DNA from: Methanomicrobiales archaeon
GTDB taxonomy: Archaea; Halobacteriota; Methanomicrobia; Methanomicrobiales; JACTUA01
Length of the DNA stretch: 38,179 nt
Direction: 5' to 3'
NCBI GenBank assembly: GCA_028678665.1
Contig: JAJRDA010000002.1
Coordinates: 1 to 38,179 of the forward strand
Shown here: piece after piece, positions 307 through 37,984 of the stretch
How the letters are laid out: each line of letters opens with the position of its first letter
How positions within the stretch are numbered: position 1 is the first letter of the stretch
Translations under genes and position numbers: made by a program
The notes under the pieces: generated by a model
The model's database searches: none
Told to the model about the DNA's origin: nothing
The model's input: the letters and a program-made list of their open reading frames with translations, nothing else

Positions 307-383
307 AGGGGGGGCCGGCCGCGGAATGTATTAAGCAGCCGGGAACCTGAAAAGGAGTGGGAAACGGAGGGGTGACCTGGTCC

Positions 384-1016
384 ATGAAGATCGCGGTATC
401 GGTGGGGGAAAACACGGTTCCGGCTGACCTCCCCACTCTCCACCCCGACATGGTGGAGGTCCGGCTGGATCTCGGCGGGGCTGGCCTCCTGGATGCAGTC
501 CAGCCGGTGCGGGAGACCGCCTGCATCCCGGTGATCGTCACTCTCCGGAGCCGGGCGGAGGGAGGGAAGTTCGCCGGTGACGAAAGGGAATGGATCCGGG
601 TAGTCCGGCCCCTCCTGCCCCTCACTGACTGGGTGGACGTGGAACTCCGGTTCCGGCGCCATGCCCCCGAGATCCGGAAAGCCGAAAAGAAGATCGTTGC
701 CTCCTGCCACCTCTCCGGAATGCCTGACCTCCCGCAGCTGAAGGTGCTGGAGCGGGACCTCCGATCCTACGGCGACCTCCCCAAGATCGTGGTCACCCCG
801 AAGGACGAGAGGGATCTCCTGGCCCTCTGCTCCTTCACCCTCGCGGCCGAGAAACCCCTCTGCACCGGGGTCTCAGGCGAGCGGTTCCGGTATGCCCGGG
901 CCCTCCTCCCCCTCTTCGGATCCGAGCTGGCGTACACTCACGCAGGCAGACCCTCTGCCCCGGGCCAGTACCACATCCGCGAGTTCCGGGAGCTGTGGGA
1001 CCTCCTGACGAAGTGA
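384..1016 (+). CDS. aroD: 3-dehydroquinate dehydratase, type I
   Basis: Translation MKIAVSVGENT...VEVRLDL...IVASCH...PKIVVTP... has the size (~210 aa) and pattern of type I DHQase. SD-like GGAGGGGTGA lies upstream of ATG 384. An alternative in-frame ATG at 357 sits ~22 nt after a TATTAA element. Confidence 0.82.
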   Translation: MKIAVSVGENTVPADLPTLHPDMVEVRLDLGGAGLLDAVQPVRETACIPVIVTLRSRAEGGKFAGDEREWIRVVRPLLPLTDWVDVELRFRRHAPEIRKAEKKIVASCHLSGMPDLPQLKVLERDLRSYGDLPKIVVTPKDERDLLALCSFTLAAEKPLCTGVSGERFRYARALLPLFGSELAYTHAGRPSAPGQYHIREFRELWDLLTK

Positions 1017-1033
1017 ACGGGACCCATCGTCGG

Positions 1034-1040
1034 AAAAAAA
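1034..1040 (-). terminator. oligo-T tract (T7 on minus strand), possible intrinsic terminator for leftward transcripts
   Basis: A7 on the plus strand at 1034-1040, downstream (minus-strand sense) of the Zn-finger gene and of repeat copy A. Archaeal RNAP terminates at oligo-T. Confidence 0.35.
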
Positions 1041-1080
1041 TCGGGAACCGGTCGGGGCATCCTCATTGGGCCAATGTTGA

Positions 1081-1244
1081 TTACCAGGACGCTCCAGGGG
1101 GGGACCCGCGGTCCCCCCCCGCCGCGTGGGCGCCCCCCCCTGCATGAGGATATGTCTCCACGTCGGGTTTACCGATGATCATACCGTCAACCGGGGGGAT
1201 GCCGACCCGGTGGGGGCAGAGCCCAAGAAGATCGTCTCACCAGT
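1081..1244 (+). repeat. Copy A of a hairpin-containing non-coding element (second copy inverted at 37414-37606)
   Basis: Blocks shared with the reverse complement of 37414-37606: GGACGCTCCAGGGGGGGA (18/18), GGTCCCCCCC(C)GCCGCGTGGGCGC, TGAGG, CCACGTCGG and CGTCTCACCAGT, in the same order. Perfect 10-bp hairpin GGGGGGGACC-cgc-GGTCCCCCCC at 1097-1119. Lies in the convergent gap between aroD and the Zn-finger gene. Confidence 0.6.
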
Positions 1245-1304
1245 CCATATCAGAAAGGGTAGCACCCTCTGGAATACTCATCAGAAACCGAGGGGGTGCG
1301 GGGT

Positions 1305-1616
1305 TCAGGGCGGCAGGATGCCGTCACTCCCCGAACGGCTGCAGAACAGCCCTGCCCAGCCGGTGAACCCGCAGTAGATGCACCCGTCACCGTCGCAGTG
1401 CCGGCACTTCCGGGATGGCTGCGCCACCAGCACTTTCCCCGTCTTATCGCAGTAGCAGCACCCTTCCCCCTCGCAATGGGCGCAGGTCTCGGGGGTATAG
1501 CGGGGCTTTTCCTTCACTTCCTCGCTGCTCACGAGAGTACCGGTGGGCTGCATGAGACGATAACGGTTGCCGGACCTGATCTCTTCCTGCCCGGAAGGGT
1601 GACGGGAATGGGGCAT
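1305..1616 (-). CDS. Small DnaJ-type (CxxCxGxG x4) zinc-finger protein
   Basis: Four motifs: CAHCEGEG, CCYCDKTG, CRHCDGDG, CIYCGFTG. ATG at 1616 is preceded by GGGAGGTGGC and lies 25 nt downstream of the TATA-like GTAAATTTTC. The track ORF extends to 1640. Confidence 0.7.
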   Translation of the reverse strand: MPHSRHPSGQEEIRSGNRYRLMQPTGTLVSSEEVKEKPRYTPETCAHCEGEGCCYCDKTGKVLVAQPSRKCRHCDGDGCIYCGFTGWAGLFCSRSGSDGILPP

Positions 1617-1641
1617 GCCACCTCCCGGCCCCACCCCCATG

Positions 1642-1650
1642 AAAATTTAC
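1642..1650 (-). promoter_or_regulatory. TATA-like box for the Zn-finger gene
   Basis: Minus-strand TAAATTTTC, 25 nt upstream of ATG 1616. Confidence 0.4.
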
Positions 1651-1673
1651 ACTTCTGAGGGATCCGGAATCCT

Positions 1674-2681
1674 TCAGGGTTCTCTCTGACGGACCCCCCG
1701 GTACTTCTCCTGCTCCAGCCAGGCGTCCACAAGGACGAGCGCCAGCATCGCCTCGGCCACGGGCAGGATACGGGGCACGATGCAGGGATCATGCCTTCCC
1801 TCCACCCGGATCTCCCGGGGATTCCCCTCCAGGTCCACCGTCTGCTGGGGCTTTGAGATGGATGGCGTGGGCTTCACCGCGATCCGGACCACGATCTCCT
1901 GCCCGGTGCTGATCCCGCCCAGGATCCCGCCGGCGTGGTTGGAGAGGAAACCGCCGGGCACGATCGGGTCGTTATTCTCGCTCCCGAACCGCCGGGCAGC
2001 GGCGAACCCGGACCCGATCTCCACGCCCTTCACGGCACCGATTCCCATCATGGCTCCGGCGATGGCAGCGTCCAGCTTGCCCATGACGGGATCACCGAGG
2101 CCAGCCTGGCACCCCTCAACCACGATCTCCACGATACCCCCCACCGAGTCGCCGTCAGCCTTTGCACGCCTGATCTCCCCCTCCCACATCTCCTGGGAGG
2201 TGGCGCCATGGATCTCCCGGATCTCCCCCCGGATCCGGATTCCCTTGAGGGCCAGGACCTTCATGGCCACGGCACCTGCCGCCACCCGGCCCACCGTCTC
2301 CCGTCCTGAGGACCGGCCCCCGCCGCGGTGGTCCCGGATCCCGTACTTGGCCTGGTAGGTGATGTCCGCGTGGCCGGGCCGGAAGACCTCCCGGAGGGCA
2401 TCGTAGTCCCCCGGCTTCTGGTCCCGGTTCCCCACGAGGAGCGCCACGGGTGCGCCGGTGGTCCGCCCTTCGAAGACCCCGGAGAGGATCTCCACCCGGT
2501 CCGGTTCGGCCCGGGCCGAGACCAGGGGCCCGGTGCCCGGCCGCCTCCGGTCCAGGAGCGGCTGGATGTCCCCCTTGGCCAAAGGAAGCCCCGGCGGGCA
2601 GCCGTCAATCACGACCCCCAGCGCCCTCCCGTGGCTCTCGCCGAAGGTGGTGCACCGGAAGTTCCTGCCAAAGGTGTTCAT
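1674..2681 (-). CDS. aroC: Chorismate synthase
   Basis: MNTFGRNFRCTTFGESHGRALGVVIDGCPPGL... is the canonical AroC N-terminus, and the rest is full length. ATG 2681 overlaps the upstream stop as ATGA. The 37 codons upstream in the track ORF are rejected. Confidence 0.95.
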   Translation of the reverse strand: MNTFGRNFRCTTFGESHGRALGVVIDGCPPGLPLAKGDIQPLLDRRRPGTGPLVSARAEPDRVEILSGVFEGRTTGAPVALLVGNRDQKPGDYDALREVFRPGHADITYQAKYGIRDHRGGGRSSGRETVGRVAAGAVAMKVLALKGIRIRGEIREIHGATSQEMWEGEIRRAKADGDSVGGIVEIVVEGCQAGLGDPVMGKLDAAIAGAMMGIGAVKGVEIGSGFAAARRFGSENNDPIVPGGFLSNHAGGILGGISTGQEIVVRIAVKPTPSISKPQQTVDLEGNPREIRVEGRHDPCIVPRILPVAEAMLALVLVDAWLEQEKYRGVRQREP

Positions 2682-4066
2682 GACTCCACGATCCCCCTCA
2701 CCTCGCCCTCCCCGGGCAGGATCCCGGTGAGGTACCGGAACTGTTCGCGTGCCTGGTGGATGAACATCTCGGTGCCCGGGATCACCCGGCACCCGGCCGC
2801 ACGGGCTGCCCGGATCAGAGGTGTCTCCGGCGGGGTATACACCATGTCAAAGACCGTCATCCCCGCCCTTAGTGCCCGGGCGGGGACCGCCATTCCCCGA
2901 TCCGGGTGCATGCCTACCGGAGTTGCGTGGACCACCACGTCGGGTTTGAGGCGTTCAATGTCTGAGAGGGGCCCATGGGCACACCCGAACCGGTCTGCCA
3001 GCTGCCGCGCCCGATCCGGTGACCGGTTCAGGATCGTGACCTCCATCCGGAGAGAGACCATGGCATGGGCTGCGGCGGCGGCAGCCCCCCCGGCGCCCAC
3101 CAGCACCGCCCGGGCCCCCTCCAGGTGCTCCAGGGGACCCCGGATGCCCAGCCAGTCCGTGTTATACCCGGTGAGCTCACCCCCGCACTGGACCACCGTG
3201 TTCACCGCGCCGATGGCTGCCGCGTCCCGGTCCACCACGTCCAGGTGCGGGATGACCTGCTCCTTGAAGGGGATCGTGACCGCACACCCCCGGAGGTCCA
3301 GGAAGTGCATCGCCTGCATGAGGGAACCGATCTCCACGGGCTGGAAGAACGTGGAGAAGAAACCGAGGCCGTACCGGGCGAAGAGGGCGTTCTGGAGCGC
3401 CGGGGTCCGGGAGTGGAACACGGGGTTCCCGGCCACGCCGCAGATGCGGGTAAGGGGGTCCTCACCCTCAGCGCCAAGGATCTTCCGCACACGTCGCAGG
3501 TCTCCGTCCGGTATCCCCGCGGTCTCCAGGAGATGGAGGCCTTCCTCCCGTGCTCCTGGGGGTACGGTACCGGCATCGAGGATCTCCCGTATCCTCCGGC
3601 TGACGTCCCCCGGTGAAACGGCTGTCGTGTCCAGGCATACGTCCGCCGCCGCAAGGTAGGCGGTGCGGCGGGCAGCAAGGAGGGCCGGCACCTCCTCCTC
3701 CAGCGGCAGGGTCGTGAGGGCGGGGCGGTTGCTCCCCCGGATCCGTTCCAGGATGGCGGCCTCCGAGGCCCGGAGGAGCACGGTGCGGGAGCTCTTCCGG
3801 AGGTGACGCACGTTCTCCTGGTCCAGGACGGCCCCGCCACCAGCAGCCACTACCAGCGGCCCCTGAGGCAGCGTGGCGATCACCTCCCGCTCCCGCCGGC
3901 GGAACCCCTCCTCGCCCTCAGCGGCAAAGATTTCAGGGATCGGACGGCCCGCCCGGGCCTCGATCTCCCGGTCCAGGTCCAGGAACGGTACCGCCAGCCC
4001 TTTGGCGAGGAGCCTCCCGATGTGGCTCTTCCCCGTGCCCCGGAACCCGATGAGAATGATCCTCAC
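2678..4066 (-). CDS. aroK-aroE: Fusion protein: P-loop (AroK/AroL-type) shikimate kinase + shikimate 5-dehydrogenase
   Basis: N-terminal part VRIILIGFRGTGKSHIGRLLA...LDLD...AAGGGAV has the Walker A and shikimate-kinase pattern. C-terminal part ICGVAGNPVFHSRTPALQNALF...NTDWLGI...VLVGAGGAAAAAAHA matches AroE. GTG 4066 overlaps the aroA stop as GTGA. The remaining N-terminal 142 codons of track ORF 2678..4492 overlap aroA and are rejected. Confidence 0.88.
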   Translation of the reverse strand: MRIILIGFRGTGKSHIGRLLAKGLAVPFLDLDREIEARAGRPIPEIFAAEGEEGFRRREREVIATLPQGPLVVAAGGGAVLDQENVRHLRKSSRTVLLRASEAAILERIRGSNRPALTTLPLEEEVPALLAARRTAYLAAADVCLDTTAVSPGDVSRRIREILDAGTVPPGAREEGLHLLETAGIPDGDLRRVRKILGAEGEDPLTRICGVAGNPVFHSRTPALQNALFARYGLGFFSTFFQPVEIGSLMQAMHFLDLRGCAVTIPFKEQVIPHLDVVDRDAAAIGAVNTVVQCGGELTGYNTDWLGIRGPLEHLEGARAVLVGAGGAAAAAAHAMVSLRMEVTILNRSPDRARQLADRFGCAHGPLSDIERLKPDVVVHATPVGMHPDRGMAVPARALRAGMTVFDMVYTPPETPLIRAARAAGCRVIPGTEMFIHQAREQFRYLTGILPGEGEVRGIVES

Positions 4067-8733: not shown

Positions 8734-9525
8734 TCATACCTTAAGAATCTCCAGCGCTTCGTCTACAGTTCTCTTCTCATGCACGATGGCGGCTGCAGCC
8801 CGGACAAACCGGTCTGGCGCCTTATGCTGGAACGCGTTGCGGCCGATGGAGATGCCGGCCGCTCCACCCTCCATGGCACCGGCAATGAGGTCCAGGGTCG
8901 CCCGCTCGTCGGTCTTCGATCCCCCGGCCACGACGACAGGGACCGGGCAGCCCCGGGTCACTGTCCGGAAGCTGTCGGGATCCCCCGTGTACACGGTCTT
9001 CACGATGTCGGCACCCAGCTCCGCGGCCACGCGGGCGGCGAGAGCCACGTGCTCCACGTCGTTCTCTTTCCGGATCTTGGCCCCCCGGGGGTACATCATG
9101 GCCAGGAGCGGCATCCCCCACTCCATGCACTCCACCGCGGTGCGGCCCAGGTCCCGGAGCATGCGGGCCTCGGACTCCGCGCCGATGTTGATATGGAGGG
9201 AGACACCATCGGCCCCCATCTTCAGCGCGTTTGCCACCGTGTTGACGAGCACCTTTTCGTTGGGGTCAGGGGAGAGGGACGTGGAGCCCGACAGGTGCAG
9301 GATCAGCCCCACGTCAGGGCCCCGCTGCCGGTGCCCGTAGAGGGAGAGCCCCAGGTGCCCCAGCACCGCGTTGGCCCCGCCCCGGGCCACCAGTTCCACG
9401 GTCTCTCCCATGTCGATCAGGCCTGCCATCGGACCGTTCGTCACCCCGTGGTCCATGGGGACGATGATCGTCTTTCTCGTGTTCCGGTCCATGATACGTT
9501 CCAGACGGATCTGTTTTCCTCTCAT
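8734..9525 (-). CDS. Class I aldolase (DeoC/FbaB) family protein; second tandem paralog (ADH synthase or DKFP synthase)
   Basis: [32 protein letters not shown]...MMYPRG...VKTVYTGD...VVVAGG...GRNAFQ. Strong SD GGAGGAG lies 5-6 nt upstream of ATG 9525. The track start at 9555 is rejected. Confidence 0.8.
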
Positions 9526-9570
9526 GACATCTCCTCCCGGCCGATCAGATCCCATGATCTGACGGACGGG

Positions 9571-9723
9571 TTACTGATAGCCAAAAAAGCGATAGCCGTA
9601 CGCTGCGCTTCCGGGCCTGGCACGAGTGCACGGGCCCGCCACCATCATCCTGCATGCGGGCGAGAACAGGACCTTCCGCTCAGCGATAAGGCAACCGGGA
9701 GCGGAAAGGCATTCACCACGCAT
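9571..9723 (-). CDS. Candidate 50-codon leader ORF upstream of the aro operon (hypothetical, may not be translated)
   Basis: ATG 9723 lies 24 nt downstream of TATA-like TTTTATCA. Peptide is MRGECLSAPGCLIAERKVLFSPACRMMVAGPCTRARPGSAAYGYRFFGYQ. The last 9 codons hold 3 Tyr and 2 Phe, and the Phe-Phe codons form a T6 tract. G/C-ending codon bias is weaker than in real genes. Confidence 0.3.
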   Translation of the reverse strand: MRGECLSAPGCLIAERKVLFSPACRMMVAGPCTRARPGSAAYGYRFFGYQ

Positions 9724-9755: not shown

Positions 9756-9991
9756 GTATGGGATCGCGGGGATGCCGGACCCGGAATGTTCCGGTCAGGG
9801 TGGGGGGAGAGCGCAGGGAGGAATGTTGGCACATTCCTGAACATCCTCCACCCCGAAAACCGAGGGAAGTGACCATCCCCATGGGGGTGGGACCGGGAGG
9901 GGGCTCTGCCCCTCCCGTCTCCCTCCCCCGGTGAGGATATTCTCTACGGACTGGCCAGGAATCCTGAACTCGGAGGGGGAGTGATCTGCCG

Positions 9992-12922: not shown

Positions 12923-13137
12923 TCCTCTCACCTCTGCCCGGACGGGCACGGCCCGTTTCAGGTAAAGCGGGAGATACGGGTCCGGAGGAGAAAGGGTTTC
13001 CGGGGGGGGGTCAAGGAAAAGTTCTTCCAGAGGTAGATACCGACAGGGCGGGACTATCTTCCTCAGGGAGGGCGACGGGAGGAGACAGAGCCCCCTCCCG
13101 GTCCCACCCCCACGAGAGGATAACCGCTCCACGCAGG

Positions 13138-17098: not shown

Positions 17099-17302
17099 TC
17101 TCCCTCTATCCCGTTTCAGATCGATCCTGAGGTAAACCGAGCATCCCTTCTCTCTGTGATTGGGAAACTCGGCAGGAGTTGGATAGGGGGGTAGGACCGG
17201 AAGGAGGCTCAGCCCTCTCCCGCCGCGTTCCCCGGACAGGTATGCCCTTCCGGCATGGGGGGACCTTGCCCCACCAGCAAGGCTCATGCCCCTTCACACC
17301 CC

Positions 17303-22787: not shown

Positions 22788-23633
22788 TCATGGAGGAGTC
22801 GTGGGGGTGGCGGGCACCGAGGTCGCCGGCACCATCGTCACCCCGGTGGCAATGACCATGATGGACTGGTACGCCAGGGGGACAACGGGCGTATGGTCGT
22901 TGTTCACGAGCTGCACCGAGAGGGTATGCATGCCGGGCGGGATATCGGGGAAGGTGAAGCCGGTGGCAGCCACGTGCCCCCACGGGACACCCGGGCTGGT
23001 GGGGATGGCAGGTGTCCCGGGGACGAAGGGTACGGTTCCGATGTCCAGGTAATAGTGCACGTGCCCCTCCCCGGCCACGTTCGCCTGCCCCTGCTTCTCC
23101 ACGATCCGGAAATTGTCCACCTGGACGGTGACCGGAACATCTCCCGCAGCGATCGTGGCTTCGTCCCGGGGTGAGAGGAAGGTGACCATCGGGACGGGCG
23201 GGGCGGTCACCGTGACCGTCACAGACCGGTACACGGGGGGTATTACCGGCGTCTGGTCGTTGTTCACGAGCTGCACGGTGAAGGTGTGCGTCCCGGGGGG
23301 AACATCAGTGAAGGTGTATTCTGTTCCTGCCACGTGGGCCCACCGGGTATCCGGTGCCGACGGGATTGCCGGCGATCCTGGCGTGGAAGGAACCGTTCCC
23401 GCGTCCAGGTAGACGTGGACATGCCCCTCGCCGGCCGCATTCGCCTGGCCCAGTTTATCCGCGATCCGGAAGTTGCCTGCTCGGAGGGTGACCGTGACAT
23501 CCCCTGCCGGGACCGAGGCTCCCTCCTGAGGCGAGAGGATATTCAGGGTCGGGCCCGGTGAAGCGCAGCCAGCGAACGCTGCCAGCACCGCCAGCGCAAG
23601 GAGGAGGGCAGGGATCCTGAGACCCGTATCCAT
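22788..23633 (-). CDS. Lipoprotein with two tandem ~120-aa domains carrying a GEGHVH motif (DUF4399-like)
   Basis: MDTGLRIPALLLALAVLAAFAGC is a signal peptide plus lipobox. Two repeats each contain NFRI..K.GQAN.AGEGHVH.YLD...QLVNND.TPV. Track ORF upstream of 23633 is rejected. Confidence 0.8.
   Translation of the reverse strand: MDTGLRIPALLLALAVLAAFAGCASPGPTLNILSPQEGASVPAGDVTVTLRAGNFRIADKLGQANAAGEGHVHVYLDAGTVPSTPGSPAIPSAPDTRWAHVAGTEYTFTDVPPGTHTFTVQLVNNDQTPVIPPVYRSVTVTVTAPPVPMVTFLSPRDEATIAAGDVPVTVQVDNFRIVEKQGQANVAGEGHVHYYLDIGTVPFVPGTPAIPTSPGVPWGHVAATGFTFPDIPPGMHTLSVQLVNNDHTPVVPLAYQSIMVIATGVTMVPATSVPATPTTPP
22830..23549 (-). repeat. Intragenic tandem duplication, 2 x 360 bp
   Basis: Residues 29-148 and 149-268 of the lipoprotein align position for position. 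The duplication is also visible as near-identical off-frame ORFs 22753..23052 and 23113..23412, offset by 360 nt. Confidence 0.85.
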
Positions 23634-36800: not shown

Positions 36801-37358
36801 ATGAGAACCATGGCATCGGAAGAAGAAAAACAGGAGGTGCTGAAGCGCCTCACGGATGCGGTTGCCCGGCTCCGGGAAGGAATGTCCCCGTCACTCGTGC
36901 CCGAAGTGGGAACCAACCTGGCGTACGCGGTGCCGGGGGCCAGGTCACCGGGAGATGTGGCGGCGGTGGAGGGACGGATCGTTCGGCTGAAGGGGAGGGT
37001 CCACCCGGTGGGGGAGGTGGCCTTTGGAGCGAGCGACCACATGGCGAGGGTCGTACTCACCGCCATGCGGTTCGATCCCCTGATCCGGGCGGCCGGCAAC
37101 GTCCGGTTCTCGGAGGAGGCTATCGGGCAGCTGCAGGATCTTCTCCTGGAGGTCTGCGAGTTTGACCGGCGGACGGAACCACCGGGGGTATCCACCATGG
37201 ACTGGGGGGTGGCCCACTGCTGCCGTGAGAGCGTCCCCGACGTGATCTCTGACCGGGGGGCGGTGGGGAAAGAGCCCATGATCCGGATCCTCGGGGAGGA
37301 CCCGGAGACAGTGGCAAAGAGGATCATCCAGCTGGGGCAGAGACTGGCCAGGGACTGA
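36801..37358 (+). CDS. thiN: ThiN-domain protein (thiamine-phosphate synthase ThiN type)
   Basis: ...LVPEVGTNLAYA...VAAVEGRIV...FGASDHMARVVL...RAAGNVRF... resembles the archaeal ThiN domain. Alternative ATG at 36810. Confidence 0.75.
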   Translation: MRTMASEEEKQEVLKRLTDAVARLREGMSPSLVPEVGTNLAYAVPGARSPGDVAAVEGRIVRLKGRVHPVGEVAFGASDHMARVVLTAMRFDPLIRAAGNVRFSEEAIGQLQDLLLEVCEFDRRTEPPGVSTMDWGVAHCCRESVPDVISDRGAVGKEPMIRILGEDPETVAKRIIQLGQRLARD

Positions 37359-37413
37359 GGAATCCTGAGGGATTCTGTCACCATCACCTGACGGTCTCCC
37401 GGAATCTTTGAGT

Positions 37414-37606
37414 ACTGGTGAGACGCTCTCGGGGGTTCACCGCCCCCGCCGCGTGGGCAACCCCCGCCGGCGTTCCGGCAACCGGTGCTCCAAGGTATCT
37501 GACAGACCGACGTGGCGGTCCCCGGTTACACCGACGTGGACAGACTAACCTCACGGGAGCGCCCACGCGGCGGGGGGGACCAAGAGGATCCCCCCCTGGA
37601 GCGTCC
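37414..37606 (-). repeat. Copy B of the hairpin-containing non-coding element (copy A at 1081-1244), with an extra internal inverted duplication
   Basis: The reverse complement carries the same ordered blocks as copy A. The hairpin GGGGGGGA...TCCCCCCC (37572-37596) has a different loop. The core CCCCCGCCGCGTGGGC (37443-37458) is perfectly complementary to 37561-37576. Confidence 0.6.
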
Positions 37607-37792
37607 CGGAAGTGCGAATCGAACCGGTAATTCCGTACGTTCCTATCCGTGAACGGAATGAACTTCGACGGGAGGGAGCTGTCGGCGGGATTCGGATTCC
37701 CCTGGGCGGATGAACGATTCCCCGCCCCTCCATAACCTTCTTAACCTCGCCCGGCGCATGAGTGATGCACAGACCTGTAAGGAACGGTGGGA

Positions 37793-37984
37793 ATGGGAAT
37801 CAAACCGTCATATATCAAGAGTATTGGCAAGGAACTCCTTGCCCGGCACCCGGAGAGGTTCGGCCGCGAGTTCGCCCAGAACAAGCAGGCCGTAGCGGAA
37901 GGAACGGTCATTGCGAGCAAGGGCGTCCGCAACCGGATCGCTGGTTACATTACAAGAAAGAATAATACGGGGAAGCATTCATAA
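37793..37984 (+). CDS. rps17e: 30S ribosomal protein eS17 (S17e)
   Basis: MGIKPSYIKSIGKELLARHPERFGREFAQNKQAV...SKGVRNRIAGYITRK is a canonical S17e sequence. Confidence 0.92.
   Translation: MGIKPSYIKSIGKELLARHPERFGREFAQNKQAVAEGTVIASKGVRNRIAGYITRKNNTGKHS

Follow-up and report, generated by a model that had tools for sequence, protein, structure and literature searches.

Two inverted intergenic segments of a wetland Methanomicrobiales archaeon as probable members of a high-copy family of palindromic repeats

Introduction

REP doublets forming hairpins (REPINs; REP, repetitive extragenic palindrome) and bacterial interspersed mosaic elements (BIMEs) of Pseudomonas and E. coli, with their REP-associated tyrosine transposase (RAYT), are high-copy, extragenic and G+C-rich pairs of inverted hairpins, which fold into a longer hairpin (PMC3733652, PMC2817692). 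Two unit types per pair, mosaic arrays, strain differences at fixed sites and the lack of a target-site duplication are further characteristics. The same features were found for a repeat in a 38,179-nt stretch of DNA (contig JAJRDA010000002.1 of assembly GCA_028678665.1, positions 1 to 38,179; "the window") from an archaeon of the Methanomicrobiales. It is present there in two inverted intergenic segments, element A and element B, each consisting of two arms, T1 and T2, and a core. In contrast to REPINs and BIMEs, the units are ~55 nt long, carry a 15-nt box, are joined tail-to-tail around a core of 35-150 nt and occur in an archaeal host. We regard the two segments, with a probability of about 0.78, as members of a lineage-specific, high-copy, non-coding and non-autonomous palindromic interspersed repeat, which is REPIN/BIME-like or resembles MITEs (miniature inverted-repeat transposable elements). 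The host is an uncultured Methanomicrobiales clade from wetlands with ~65% G+C. On this reading the repeat is selfish or formerly mobile DNA and not a small-RNA gene; it is a familiar kind of element, forming a new family.

MITEs with long terminal inverted repeats, such as the Correia elements of Neisseria and SM1-SM4 of Sulfolobus, are comparable in lacking open reading frames (ORFs), in their many intergenic copies and long inverted ends, in size range, in the recurrence of units with the same core at different loci and in the presence of decayed copies. In contrast to these MITEs, no duplication was detected here in 13 copies and no parent insertion sequence (IS) was found. Moreover, the arms are much better conserved than the cores and are systematically non-identical (T1 versus T2).

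Enterobacterial repetitive intergenic consensus sequences or intergenic repeat units (ERIC/IRU) and BOX elements resemble the element in being ~100-200 nt long, either modular or palindromic with imperfections, and located in intergenic regions that are transcribed, with variants arising via internal insertion or deletion of modules. To our knowledge, no transposase is known for them. They differ from the element by the lack of any sequence relation, by another module logic and by their bacterial hosts. Palindrome-associated transposable elements (PATEs) derived from IS200/IS605 are also similar; they have hairpins near their ends, make no target-site duplication and are common in archaea. The ends of PATEs, as those associated with omega-RNA, are unlike left and right hairpins on one strand without true terminal inverted repeats, whereas inverted repeats of 55 nt are present here.

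Surveys of REPs and RAYTs reported them for bacteria only, and for Archaea only IS200-type TnpA (PMC3733652, PMC6006769). The repeat is not among the descriptions in a census of 18,091 archaeal MITEs (PMC11602168), and no description of a T1/T2 repeat was found in the literature on repeats of Methanomicrobiales or Methanoregula.

Materials and methods

Related loci from Methanomicrobiales metagenome-assembled genomes (MAGs) and metagenome contigs are labelled L with a number (e.g. L014, L203). In an exact-word scan with one genome per species, 111 loci were among the matches listed, so the size of the family is a lower bound. About 190 kb of clade sequence were read. Arms were searched with an nhmmer profile of the ~55-nt arm. 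Chance rates for blocks of the window were obtained from dinucleotide-preserving shuffles. Word depth was taken from the Logan contigs of four metagenomes from wetlands or freshwater; the depth of a metagenome contig pools several populations, and the copy number per genome is an estimate. For the site between the ThiN-like gene and the gene of ribosomal protein S17e, metagenome contigs were examined by a protein-guided scan (80 loci). A contig 99% identical to the window exists (uncultured wetland archaeon).

Results and discussion

Anatomy of the two elements

The preliminary description of this DNA, made from the letters alone, had reported two diverged, inverted copies of a non-coding segment. 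All five shared blocks were found in both segments with their order kept, at 1087-1244 (+) and 37414-37606 (-). The limits defined by the arm profile refine these ranges to 1080-1244 and 37413-37613. The 18-mer GGACGCTCCAGGGGGGGA and the 19-mer CCCCCCGCCGCGTGGGCGC occur exactly once in each copy; at up to three mismatches, 0.37 and 0.18 chance matches per window are expected, respectively. The G7/C7-8 hairpin is present in both copies as described (1097-1120 and 37596-37572), with different loops, CGC and TCTT. The reported surroundings of copy A were also seen: the Zn-ribbon ORF occupies 1305-1640 (-), the A7/T7 tract is located at 1034-1040, and neither a tRNA nor an ORF is attached. It had been overlooked that each copy is a near-palindrome of two inverted arms. 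In a repeat search the box CCCCGCCGCGTGGGC occurred a third time in the window, at 37444 on the + strand, so that copy B itself is nearly palindromic. Exactly four arms were detected in the window by the profile, at 1080-1138 (+), 1244-1194 (-), 37413-37465 (+) and 37613-37555 (-). The elements and their parts are:

1080-1244, + strand: element A, a full foldback with T1, core and decayed T2, found with the arm profile in the gap where aroD and the Zn-ribbon gene converge
1080-1138, + strand: T1 arm of element A (nhmmer E 3e-11)
1139-1193, + strand: core of element A, ATGAGGAT...CCACGTCGGGTTTACCGATGATC..., with TCGG-loop-CCGA hairpin, common to L014, L031a/b and L197
1194-1244, - strand: decayed T2 arm of element A, - strand reading ACTGGTGAGACGATCTTCTTGGGCTCTGCCCCCACCGGGTCGGCATCCCCCC (nhmmer E 0.13)
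37413-37613, - strand: element B, a full foldback with T1, core and T2 on the - strand and both arms intact, in the gap between the ThiN-like and S17e genes
37413-37465, + strand: T2 arm of element B (nhmmer E 5e-11)
37555-37613, - strand: T1 arm of element B (nhmmer E 4e-11)

Full elements are 145-276 nt long and consist of two inverted arms of ~55 nt, T1 and T2, around a short core, which is bounded by GAGGAT...ATCCTC and contains a central TCGG-loop-CCGA hairpin. Every arm carries a G-run/C-run hairpin and the invariant, non-palindromic 15-nt box CCCCGCCGCGTGGGC. The T1 arm reads ACTGG..GACGCTC-CA, followed by a long G7ACC-loop-GGTC7 hairpin, the box and GC. The T2 arm shares this frame but has TC or TT after GACGCTC; its hairpin is short (G5CTCCGC5), and the box is followed by A-Y. 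After GGGC, T1 has GC and T2 has A-Y. Full elements were always inverted heterodimers of T1 and T2 (15 pairs).

In element A, T1 starts with the non-canonical terminus TTACCAG, followed by GACGCTCC and a G7-ACC-CGC-GGT-C8 hairpin (1097-1120); its box is located at 1117-1131 and is followed by GC and a C-run. Its decayed T2 differs from T1 at 4 of 22 scored P1/P2 positions. A pair is broken by three of these changes, the fourth could form a wobble pair, and T1 has no matching change for any of them. Element A is 83% identical to the element of L014 over 141 nt. Copy B opens with ACTGGTGAGACGCTC, then a short hairpin of the G5/C5 type and the box, and closes with the reverse complement of the box, a G7/C7 hairpin and GGGACGCTCC. 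Its T2 arm contains TACTGGTGAGACGCTCTC, a short G5-TTCACCG-C5 hairpin (37431-37447) and the box (37444-37458), followed by AA and a C-run. Its T1 arm is composed of GGGACGCTCCA, a G7-A-TCC-TCTT-GG-T-C7 hairpin (37596-37572), the box and GC.

In several relatives the loop of the T2 hairpin contains internal duplications of 9-11 nt (CTCCG-CTGCCG-CTCCG), namely in L114 (1569-1630), L116 (960-1019), L117/L118 and L194 (3789-3848). This suggests slippage inside the hairpin.

Copy number and lineage range

Both segments belong to a large multi-copy family. Thus, the case in which only two copies exist, named in the preliminary description as one that would speak against its proposal, does not apply. 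At least 18 Methanomicrobiales MAG loci were among the 111 loci listed in the exact-word scan, several of them with two to five arms. With the arm profile, applied to the scan loci and to loci added later, at least 59 arms were detected, spread over 37 loci from MAGs of related Methanomicrobiales and from metagenome contigs, and at least 15 of the arm pairs are full T1+T2 elements. A subfamily of ~160 nt with the same core was found at unrelated loci (element A of the window, L014, L031a/b and L197), and a composite subfamily of ~270 nt contains an internal hairpin of a second palindromic family, F2 (L038, L057 and L090). Since subfamilies with the same core recur at unrelated loci, the whole unit is copied.

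The metagenomes gave a comparable picture. Word depth reached 600-23,600 over 37392-37473, 100-325 over 37556-37596 and 100-760 over 1072-1159, against about 8-60 beside these regions. Of the arm types, T2 as in element B was the most frequent one in the metagenomes (depth up to 23,600). Contigs depart from the window at the borders of the arms (1087-1089 and 1137-1140 in copy A; 37409-37415, 37466-37478, 37555 and 37607 in copy B) and run into mutually dissimilar flanks with a consensus agreement of ~0.5. The contexts of the repeat in the metagenomes number in the hundreds.

The family is restricted to one lineage. No arm was detected by the profile in 365 kb from relatives with 40-68% ThiN identity. 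Some G+C-rich bacterial loci match the 18-mer; these matches were rejected as chance, since the profile gave no arm in 688 kb of these loci. The 18-mer box was also present in MAGs labelled Methanoregula and Methanolinea.

With contigs of the same population that extend past the window, a density of about one T element per 16 kb was obtained. In the same genome outside the window, a full T2..T1 element is located in the spacer between CofC and F420-ligase genes (L112, 12853-13219); furthermore, a solo arm (L203, 100-155) and an F2 hairpin (L202, 2504-2526) were found. In L040 (448-830), L042 (2587-2990) and L097 (2-120), from MAGs labelled Methanoregula, Methanolinea and 'Methanobacteriota', a longer common stretch begins with a variant arm, TGACGCTTGAAGGAGGGGCTTCGCCCCCCGCCGCGTGGGCGCCGCCCC. 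The stretch common to L040 and L042 comprises about 350 nt with repeated GGTGACGC motifs and may be a larger relative of the element.

Orthologous sites

In relatives the two sites differ in length, content and orientation. Of ~35 outgroup loci with 58-68% identity, one had a gap of 90 nt between the ThiN-like gene and the S17e gene and all others had 19-32 nt; in nine loci with 83-86% identity the gap was 369-616 nt. The window has the following spacer there:

37341-37718, no strand assigned: hypervariable spacer; homology of relatives (82-88% nucleotide identity) ends at 37336-37360 and restarts at 37719-37725

The spacer is filled with T2, core and T1 in the window, with T2, F2 and T1 in L113, with T2 and F2 in L114-L118 and with F2 alone in L119-L121. 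On the aroD side the gap was 62 nt in the outgroup versus 288-780 nt in eight relatives with 76-89% identity. The orientation at this site is T1 to T2 in the window and in L197/L198, and T2 to T1 in L193 and L200; L194 and L196 contain T2 and F2. Neither position nor orientation relative to neighbouring genes is conserved at orthologous sites.

A difference within the population was resolved for copy A. L203, which encodes an identical AroD protein and has flanks identical to those of the window, is 102 nt longer at this site. The surplus consists of 69 nt and another T1 head, which is truncated; it is located at 9513-9622 and corresponds to 1086/1087 of the window. The form shared by the window and L202 and the form of L204 look as if the sequence between the two direct T1 heads had been deleted independently in each. 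The crossover points of the two forms differ, marked by the loop base C or T. The second T1 head upstream, as in L203, explains the odd terminus TTACCAG of copy A.

Two side observations were made at these sites. Just upstream of S17e, the conserved stretch 37721-37783 matches the last ~50 nt plus stop codon of the outgroup ThiN-like gene at 29-30 of 50 positions, with a register consistent over five outgroups and a score exceeding all 200 shuffles. The origin of the spacer may have been accompanied by a duplication of the ThiN tail, which carries the S17e promoter. Downstream of aroD, an A+T-rich stretch in L197 (2590-4506) and L198 (3160-3976) abuts and truncates the T2 arm, and the Zn-ribbon gene is replaced. 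It encodes a PIN domain of the PIN-TPR-GreABC type (PF20698, E 6e-20) and looks like a foreign island inserted at or beside the repeat.

Folding and covariation

In the preliminary description the pairing kept despite different sequences was taken as the pattern of a selected RNA or DNA structure. Element B folds with -117 kcal/mol (z -3.9) on one strand and with -112 kcal/mol (z -3.7) on the other, since it is a DNA palindrome. For the minus strand of copy A the z-score was only -0.9. The comparison of arm with arm over GACGCTC and the box in 15 full elements gave 295 of 315 identical positions and 20 changes in one arm. Changes in both arms at the same position did not occur, so none of the 20 was compensated. 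In an alignment of nine elements, scored on the fold of a consensus-like member, 80.1% of the cells were paired (shuffled mean 80.1), the covariation score was 0.076 (shuffled 0.079), and no compensatory pair was detected in the 21-bp central helix; with 15 full copies only, the power of the covariation analysis is modest. As the changes of the arms are uncompensated and the covariation is at the shuffled level, pairing follows from the conserved inverted sequence, and the argument for a selected RNA does not hold. A lack of covariation, likewise named in the preliminary description among the results that would speak against its proposal, was thus observed.

The G-run/C-run hairpin is kept in all 48 arms examined, with freely varying loops. 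Double changes in it were of one kind only, A-T to G-C, in 2 of 48 arms (L032 and L194). The small hairpin within each arm is probably needed, which has no bearing on the question of RNA or DNA.

With Rfam, only a tRNA was found in the whole window at gathering score, and nothing credible in either copy at E values up to 10; the Methanoregula-like arms of L040, L042 and L097 gave no match. A conserved promoter-like flank of the arms was not detected. No RNA run contained the consensus element; the three metatranscriptome runs of the same study lack a signal of the organism, even of its S17e gene.

Mobility and nature of the repeat

Several results correspond to those expected for MITEs. The elements are 145-276 nt long, within the span of about 50-800 bp typical of MITEs, without ORFs beyond chance poly-Gly/Pro frames, the terminal inverted repeats of ~55 nt exceed a length of 10-15 bp, copies are dispersed in unrelated contexts, and presence/absence differences occur at orthologous sites. 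Among the four options of the preliminary description, the MITE/REP-like one is supported by the multiple copies, their unrelated contexts, the empty outgroup sites and the content and orientation varying among close relatives. A MITE is favoured by the length of the inverted ends and by the copying of whole units, whereas obligate T1+T2 heterodimers, mosaics with F2, the missing duplication and a conservation of the arms exceeding that of the cores favour REPs and BIMEs.

Some findings weigh against a mobile repeat. No consistent direct repeat was detected as target-site duplication, which comprises 2-10 bp in MITEs, in 13 complete copies, which are old and without an exact empty allele; isolated 4-7-mers at their borders were at chance level. 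In about 190 kb of clade sequence neither a transposase nor any other gene flanked by arms was found. Among the loci compared, no clean pair of filled and empty alleles with exact borders was detected, so that active transposition is inferred, not demonstrated. The full-length identity between copies of the same MAG is only ~80-85%, so that a very recent burst is not indicated. Conservation is higher in the arms than in the cores, and MAGs labelled Methanoregula and Methanolinea share the 18-mer box; this could reflect selection on the arms instead of pure selfish spread. Finally, both sites are always occupied by some element in all close relatives, which could result from an old insertion followed by gene conversion.

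Searches for a partner and for related mobile elements gave the following results. No parent insertion sequence with the same ends was present in the ~190 kb of clade loci, a known IS end, which would have turned the copies into ordinary MITEs, was not matched, and collections of plasmids, phages and viruses contained no match. Further candidates were rejected. A TA duplication was discarded because G and T are about equally frequent as the base before the terminal ACTGG. Two inverted arms 2.9 kb apart in L085 do not enclose an autonomous element; the interval contains HEAT-repeat, MsrB-like and methyltransferase genes. Ends of the IS200/IS605 type or omega-RNA were dismissed because the ends are true inverted repeats of 55 nt, and no tnpA or tnpB was found among the neighbouring ORFs. 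The two copies do not form a composite transposon bracketing 36 kb, since housekeeping genes, aro and ribosomal ones among them, are located in the interval and each copy is complete by itself.

A strict REP/BIME system would comprise REP-like arms kept over the long term. A domesticated HUH tyrosine transposase (RAYT-like), encoded by a single gene copy, would move or process them as single-stranded hairpins, with host uses such as protection of mRNA 3' ends, insulation of transcription or binding of nucleoid proteins. Such a system would agree with the constant inverted heterodimers, comparable to the Y/Z REP pairs in BIMEs and seen here in 15 T1+T2 pairs and in composites with F2, as well as with strain differences at fixed intergenic sites, the missing target-site duplication, the conservation of arms across MAGs of different genera and the position of copies mostly just downstream of genes. 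REPs carry a conserved unpaired tag, GTAG or CGTC, at one end. The G/C hairpin of 15-25 nt is accompanied here by a conserved unpaired GACG(CTC), which contains the reverse complement of CGTC, and CGTC-tagged REPs have been described (PMC3733652). However, the conserved unit is 55 nt long with a 15-nt invariant non-palindromic box and not a palindrome of 20-40 nt. No RAYT-like gene was seen in the clade loci read, and in a survey of complete genomes Archaea had IS200-type TnpA only, the REP-associated classes being bacterial (PMC6006769). Whole T1-core-T2 units with shared cores recurring at different loci are also more MITE-like. We therefore consider the strict form unlikely. Equally doubtful is that the repeat represents the first REPIN/BIME-like system of an archaeon, with vertically inherited T1/T2 (or T1/T2/F2) units maintained by a domesticated transposase or a hairpin-binding protein. 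In that case a host use at gene ends would be expected, e.g. the insulation or stabilisation of transcripts, and the strict pairing of T1 with T2 would reflect the mode of action of the maintaining protein.

A structured small RNA family or a cis-acting RNA module (3'-UTR stabiliser or terminator) with a selected rod-like fold could explain the fold of element B far beyond that of shuffles, the hairpin kept in every arm with variable loop and the position of copy A on the minus strand, where it is flanked by the stop codon of a gene and by a T7 tract. But both strands fold equally, as DNA palindromes do, and copy A hardly departs from shuffles on its minus strand. The uncompensated arm changes, pairing and covariation equal to shuffles, the non-conserved position, orientation and content at orthologous sites and the lack of an Rfam match or a conserved promoter-like flank make this explanation very improbable. 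A spread of non-mobile repeats, in which a few ancient intergenic palindromes only duplicate locally, undergo gene conversion and recombine with each other, would fit the sole resolved population difference, which is an arm-to-arm deletion or duplication and not a clean insertion, the lack of a target-site duplication and a transposase, and the filling of the same sites in all close relatives. It is hardly compatible with hundreds of metagenome contexts, with MAG copies beside unrelated housekeeping genes, with opposite orientations at one site and with outgroup sites of 19-62 nt. Many unlinked loci are occupied, and some copying mechanism is therefore needed, so that we give this possibility almost no weight.

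For the non-autonomous interspersed repeat favoured by us, a trans-acting enzyme would recognise the hairpin-bearing arms by their sequence, and whole T1-core-T2 units would be copied to new intergenic sites. Inserted copies would then decay and be reshuffled by recombination from arm to arm, while effects on neighbouring transcripts would be secondary, if there are any. If the partner enzyme is found, the always heterodimeric arms will offer a tractable case of element recognition in archaea. In this Methanomicrobiales lineage, once very short spacers (19-62 nt) were filled with mosaic palindromes of several hundred nt, which turn over between strains; at one site the repeats separated the ThiN-like and S17e genes, which are nearly contiguous in relatives. 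For annotation and assembly it is of importance that arms and F2 hairpins occur roughly every 10-16 kb and that scans for structured RNAs will keep flagging them. Contigs of wetland methanogen MAGs end at the repeats in L014, L055, L097, L195, L196 and L199.

Neighbouring genes

All arms are located between coding-like ORFs, at distances of 16-370 nt. The recognisable genes beside them are housekeeping genes, such as those for DNA polymerase, ribonucleotide reductase, aminoacyl-tRNA synthetases, PAN, CofD and others. No transposase was found among ~30 ORFs beside arms, with a Pfam run on the unclear ones. In the window the neighbours are:

384-1016, + strand: aroD, type I 3-dehydroquinate dehydratase, left of element A (PF01487; 210-aa gene call)
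1305-1616, - strand: gene of a small CxxC Zn-ribbon protein, right of element A (103-aa gene call; weak DnaJ_CXXCXGXG match)
36801-37358, + strand: ThiN-like gene, left of element B (PF10120)
37793-37984, + strand: gene of ribosomal protein S17e, right of element B

The second palindromic family F2

The consensus layout of F2 is CTATCCTCAC-GGGGGAGGGAC-CGGGAGGGGGC-loop-GCCCCCTCCCG-GTCCCTCCCCC-GTGAGGATAG. F2 has the GAGGAT/ATCCTC and C-run motifs in common with the T elements and forms mosaics with T arms in relatives. Its metagenome depth was 350-3100, against 8-60 beside it, and about 25 copies were found in the clade loci. In the window F2 and similar sequences are located as follows:

9870-9945, + strand: F2 copy, GGGGGTGGGAC-CGGGAGGGGGC-TCTG-CCCCTCCCG-TCTCCCTCCCCC-GGTGAGGATA
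13055-13135, - strand: second F2 copy, just past the stop of a minus-strand gene and a T8 tract
17180-17240, + strand: degenerate F2-like hairpin, downstream of a stop codon
19640-19720, + strand: degenerate F2-like element (CTATCCTCTCGGGGGGTGGGACCGATAGGGGGC...GGAGGAT), downstream of a stop codon
1617-1640: F2-like half

Further observations

No link of the copies to a tRNA or tmRNA was found. ARAGORN predicted a 92-nt tRNA-Cys at 465-556 in the coding region of aroD; it lacks Rfam support and is probably a false positive. In Methanomicrobiales/Methanoregula MAG contigs, L089 encodes a bacterial-type RuvB at 1477-2487 (Pfam RuvB_N/RuvB_C, E 3e-75), and L040 a GroEL-like chaperonin at 978-2603, judged by eye; horizontal transfer or a binning issue could account for both genes. 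Furthermore, a direct repeat of 300 nt with 71% identity is present in the window at 22844-23143 and 23204-23503 with a spacing of 360 nt, and may be intragenic.

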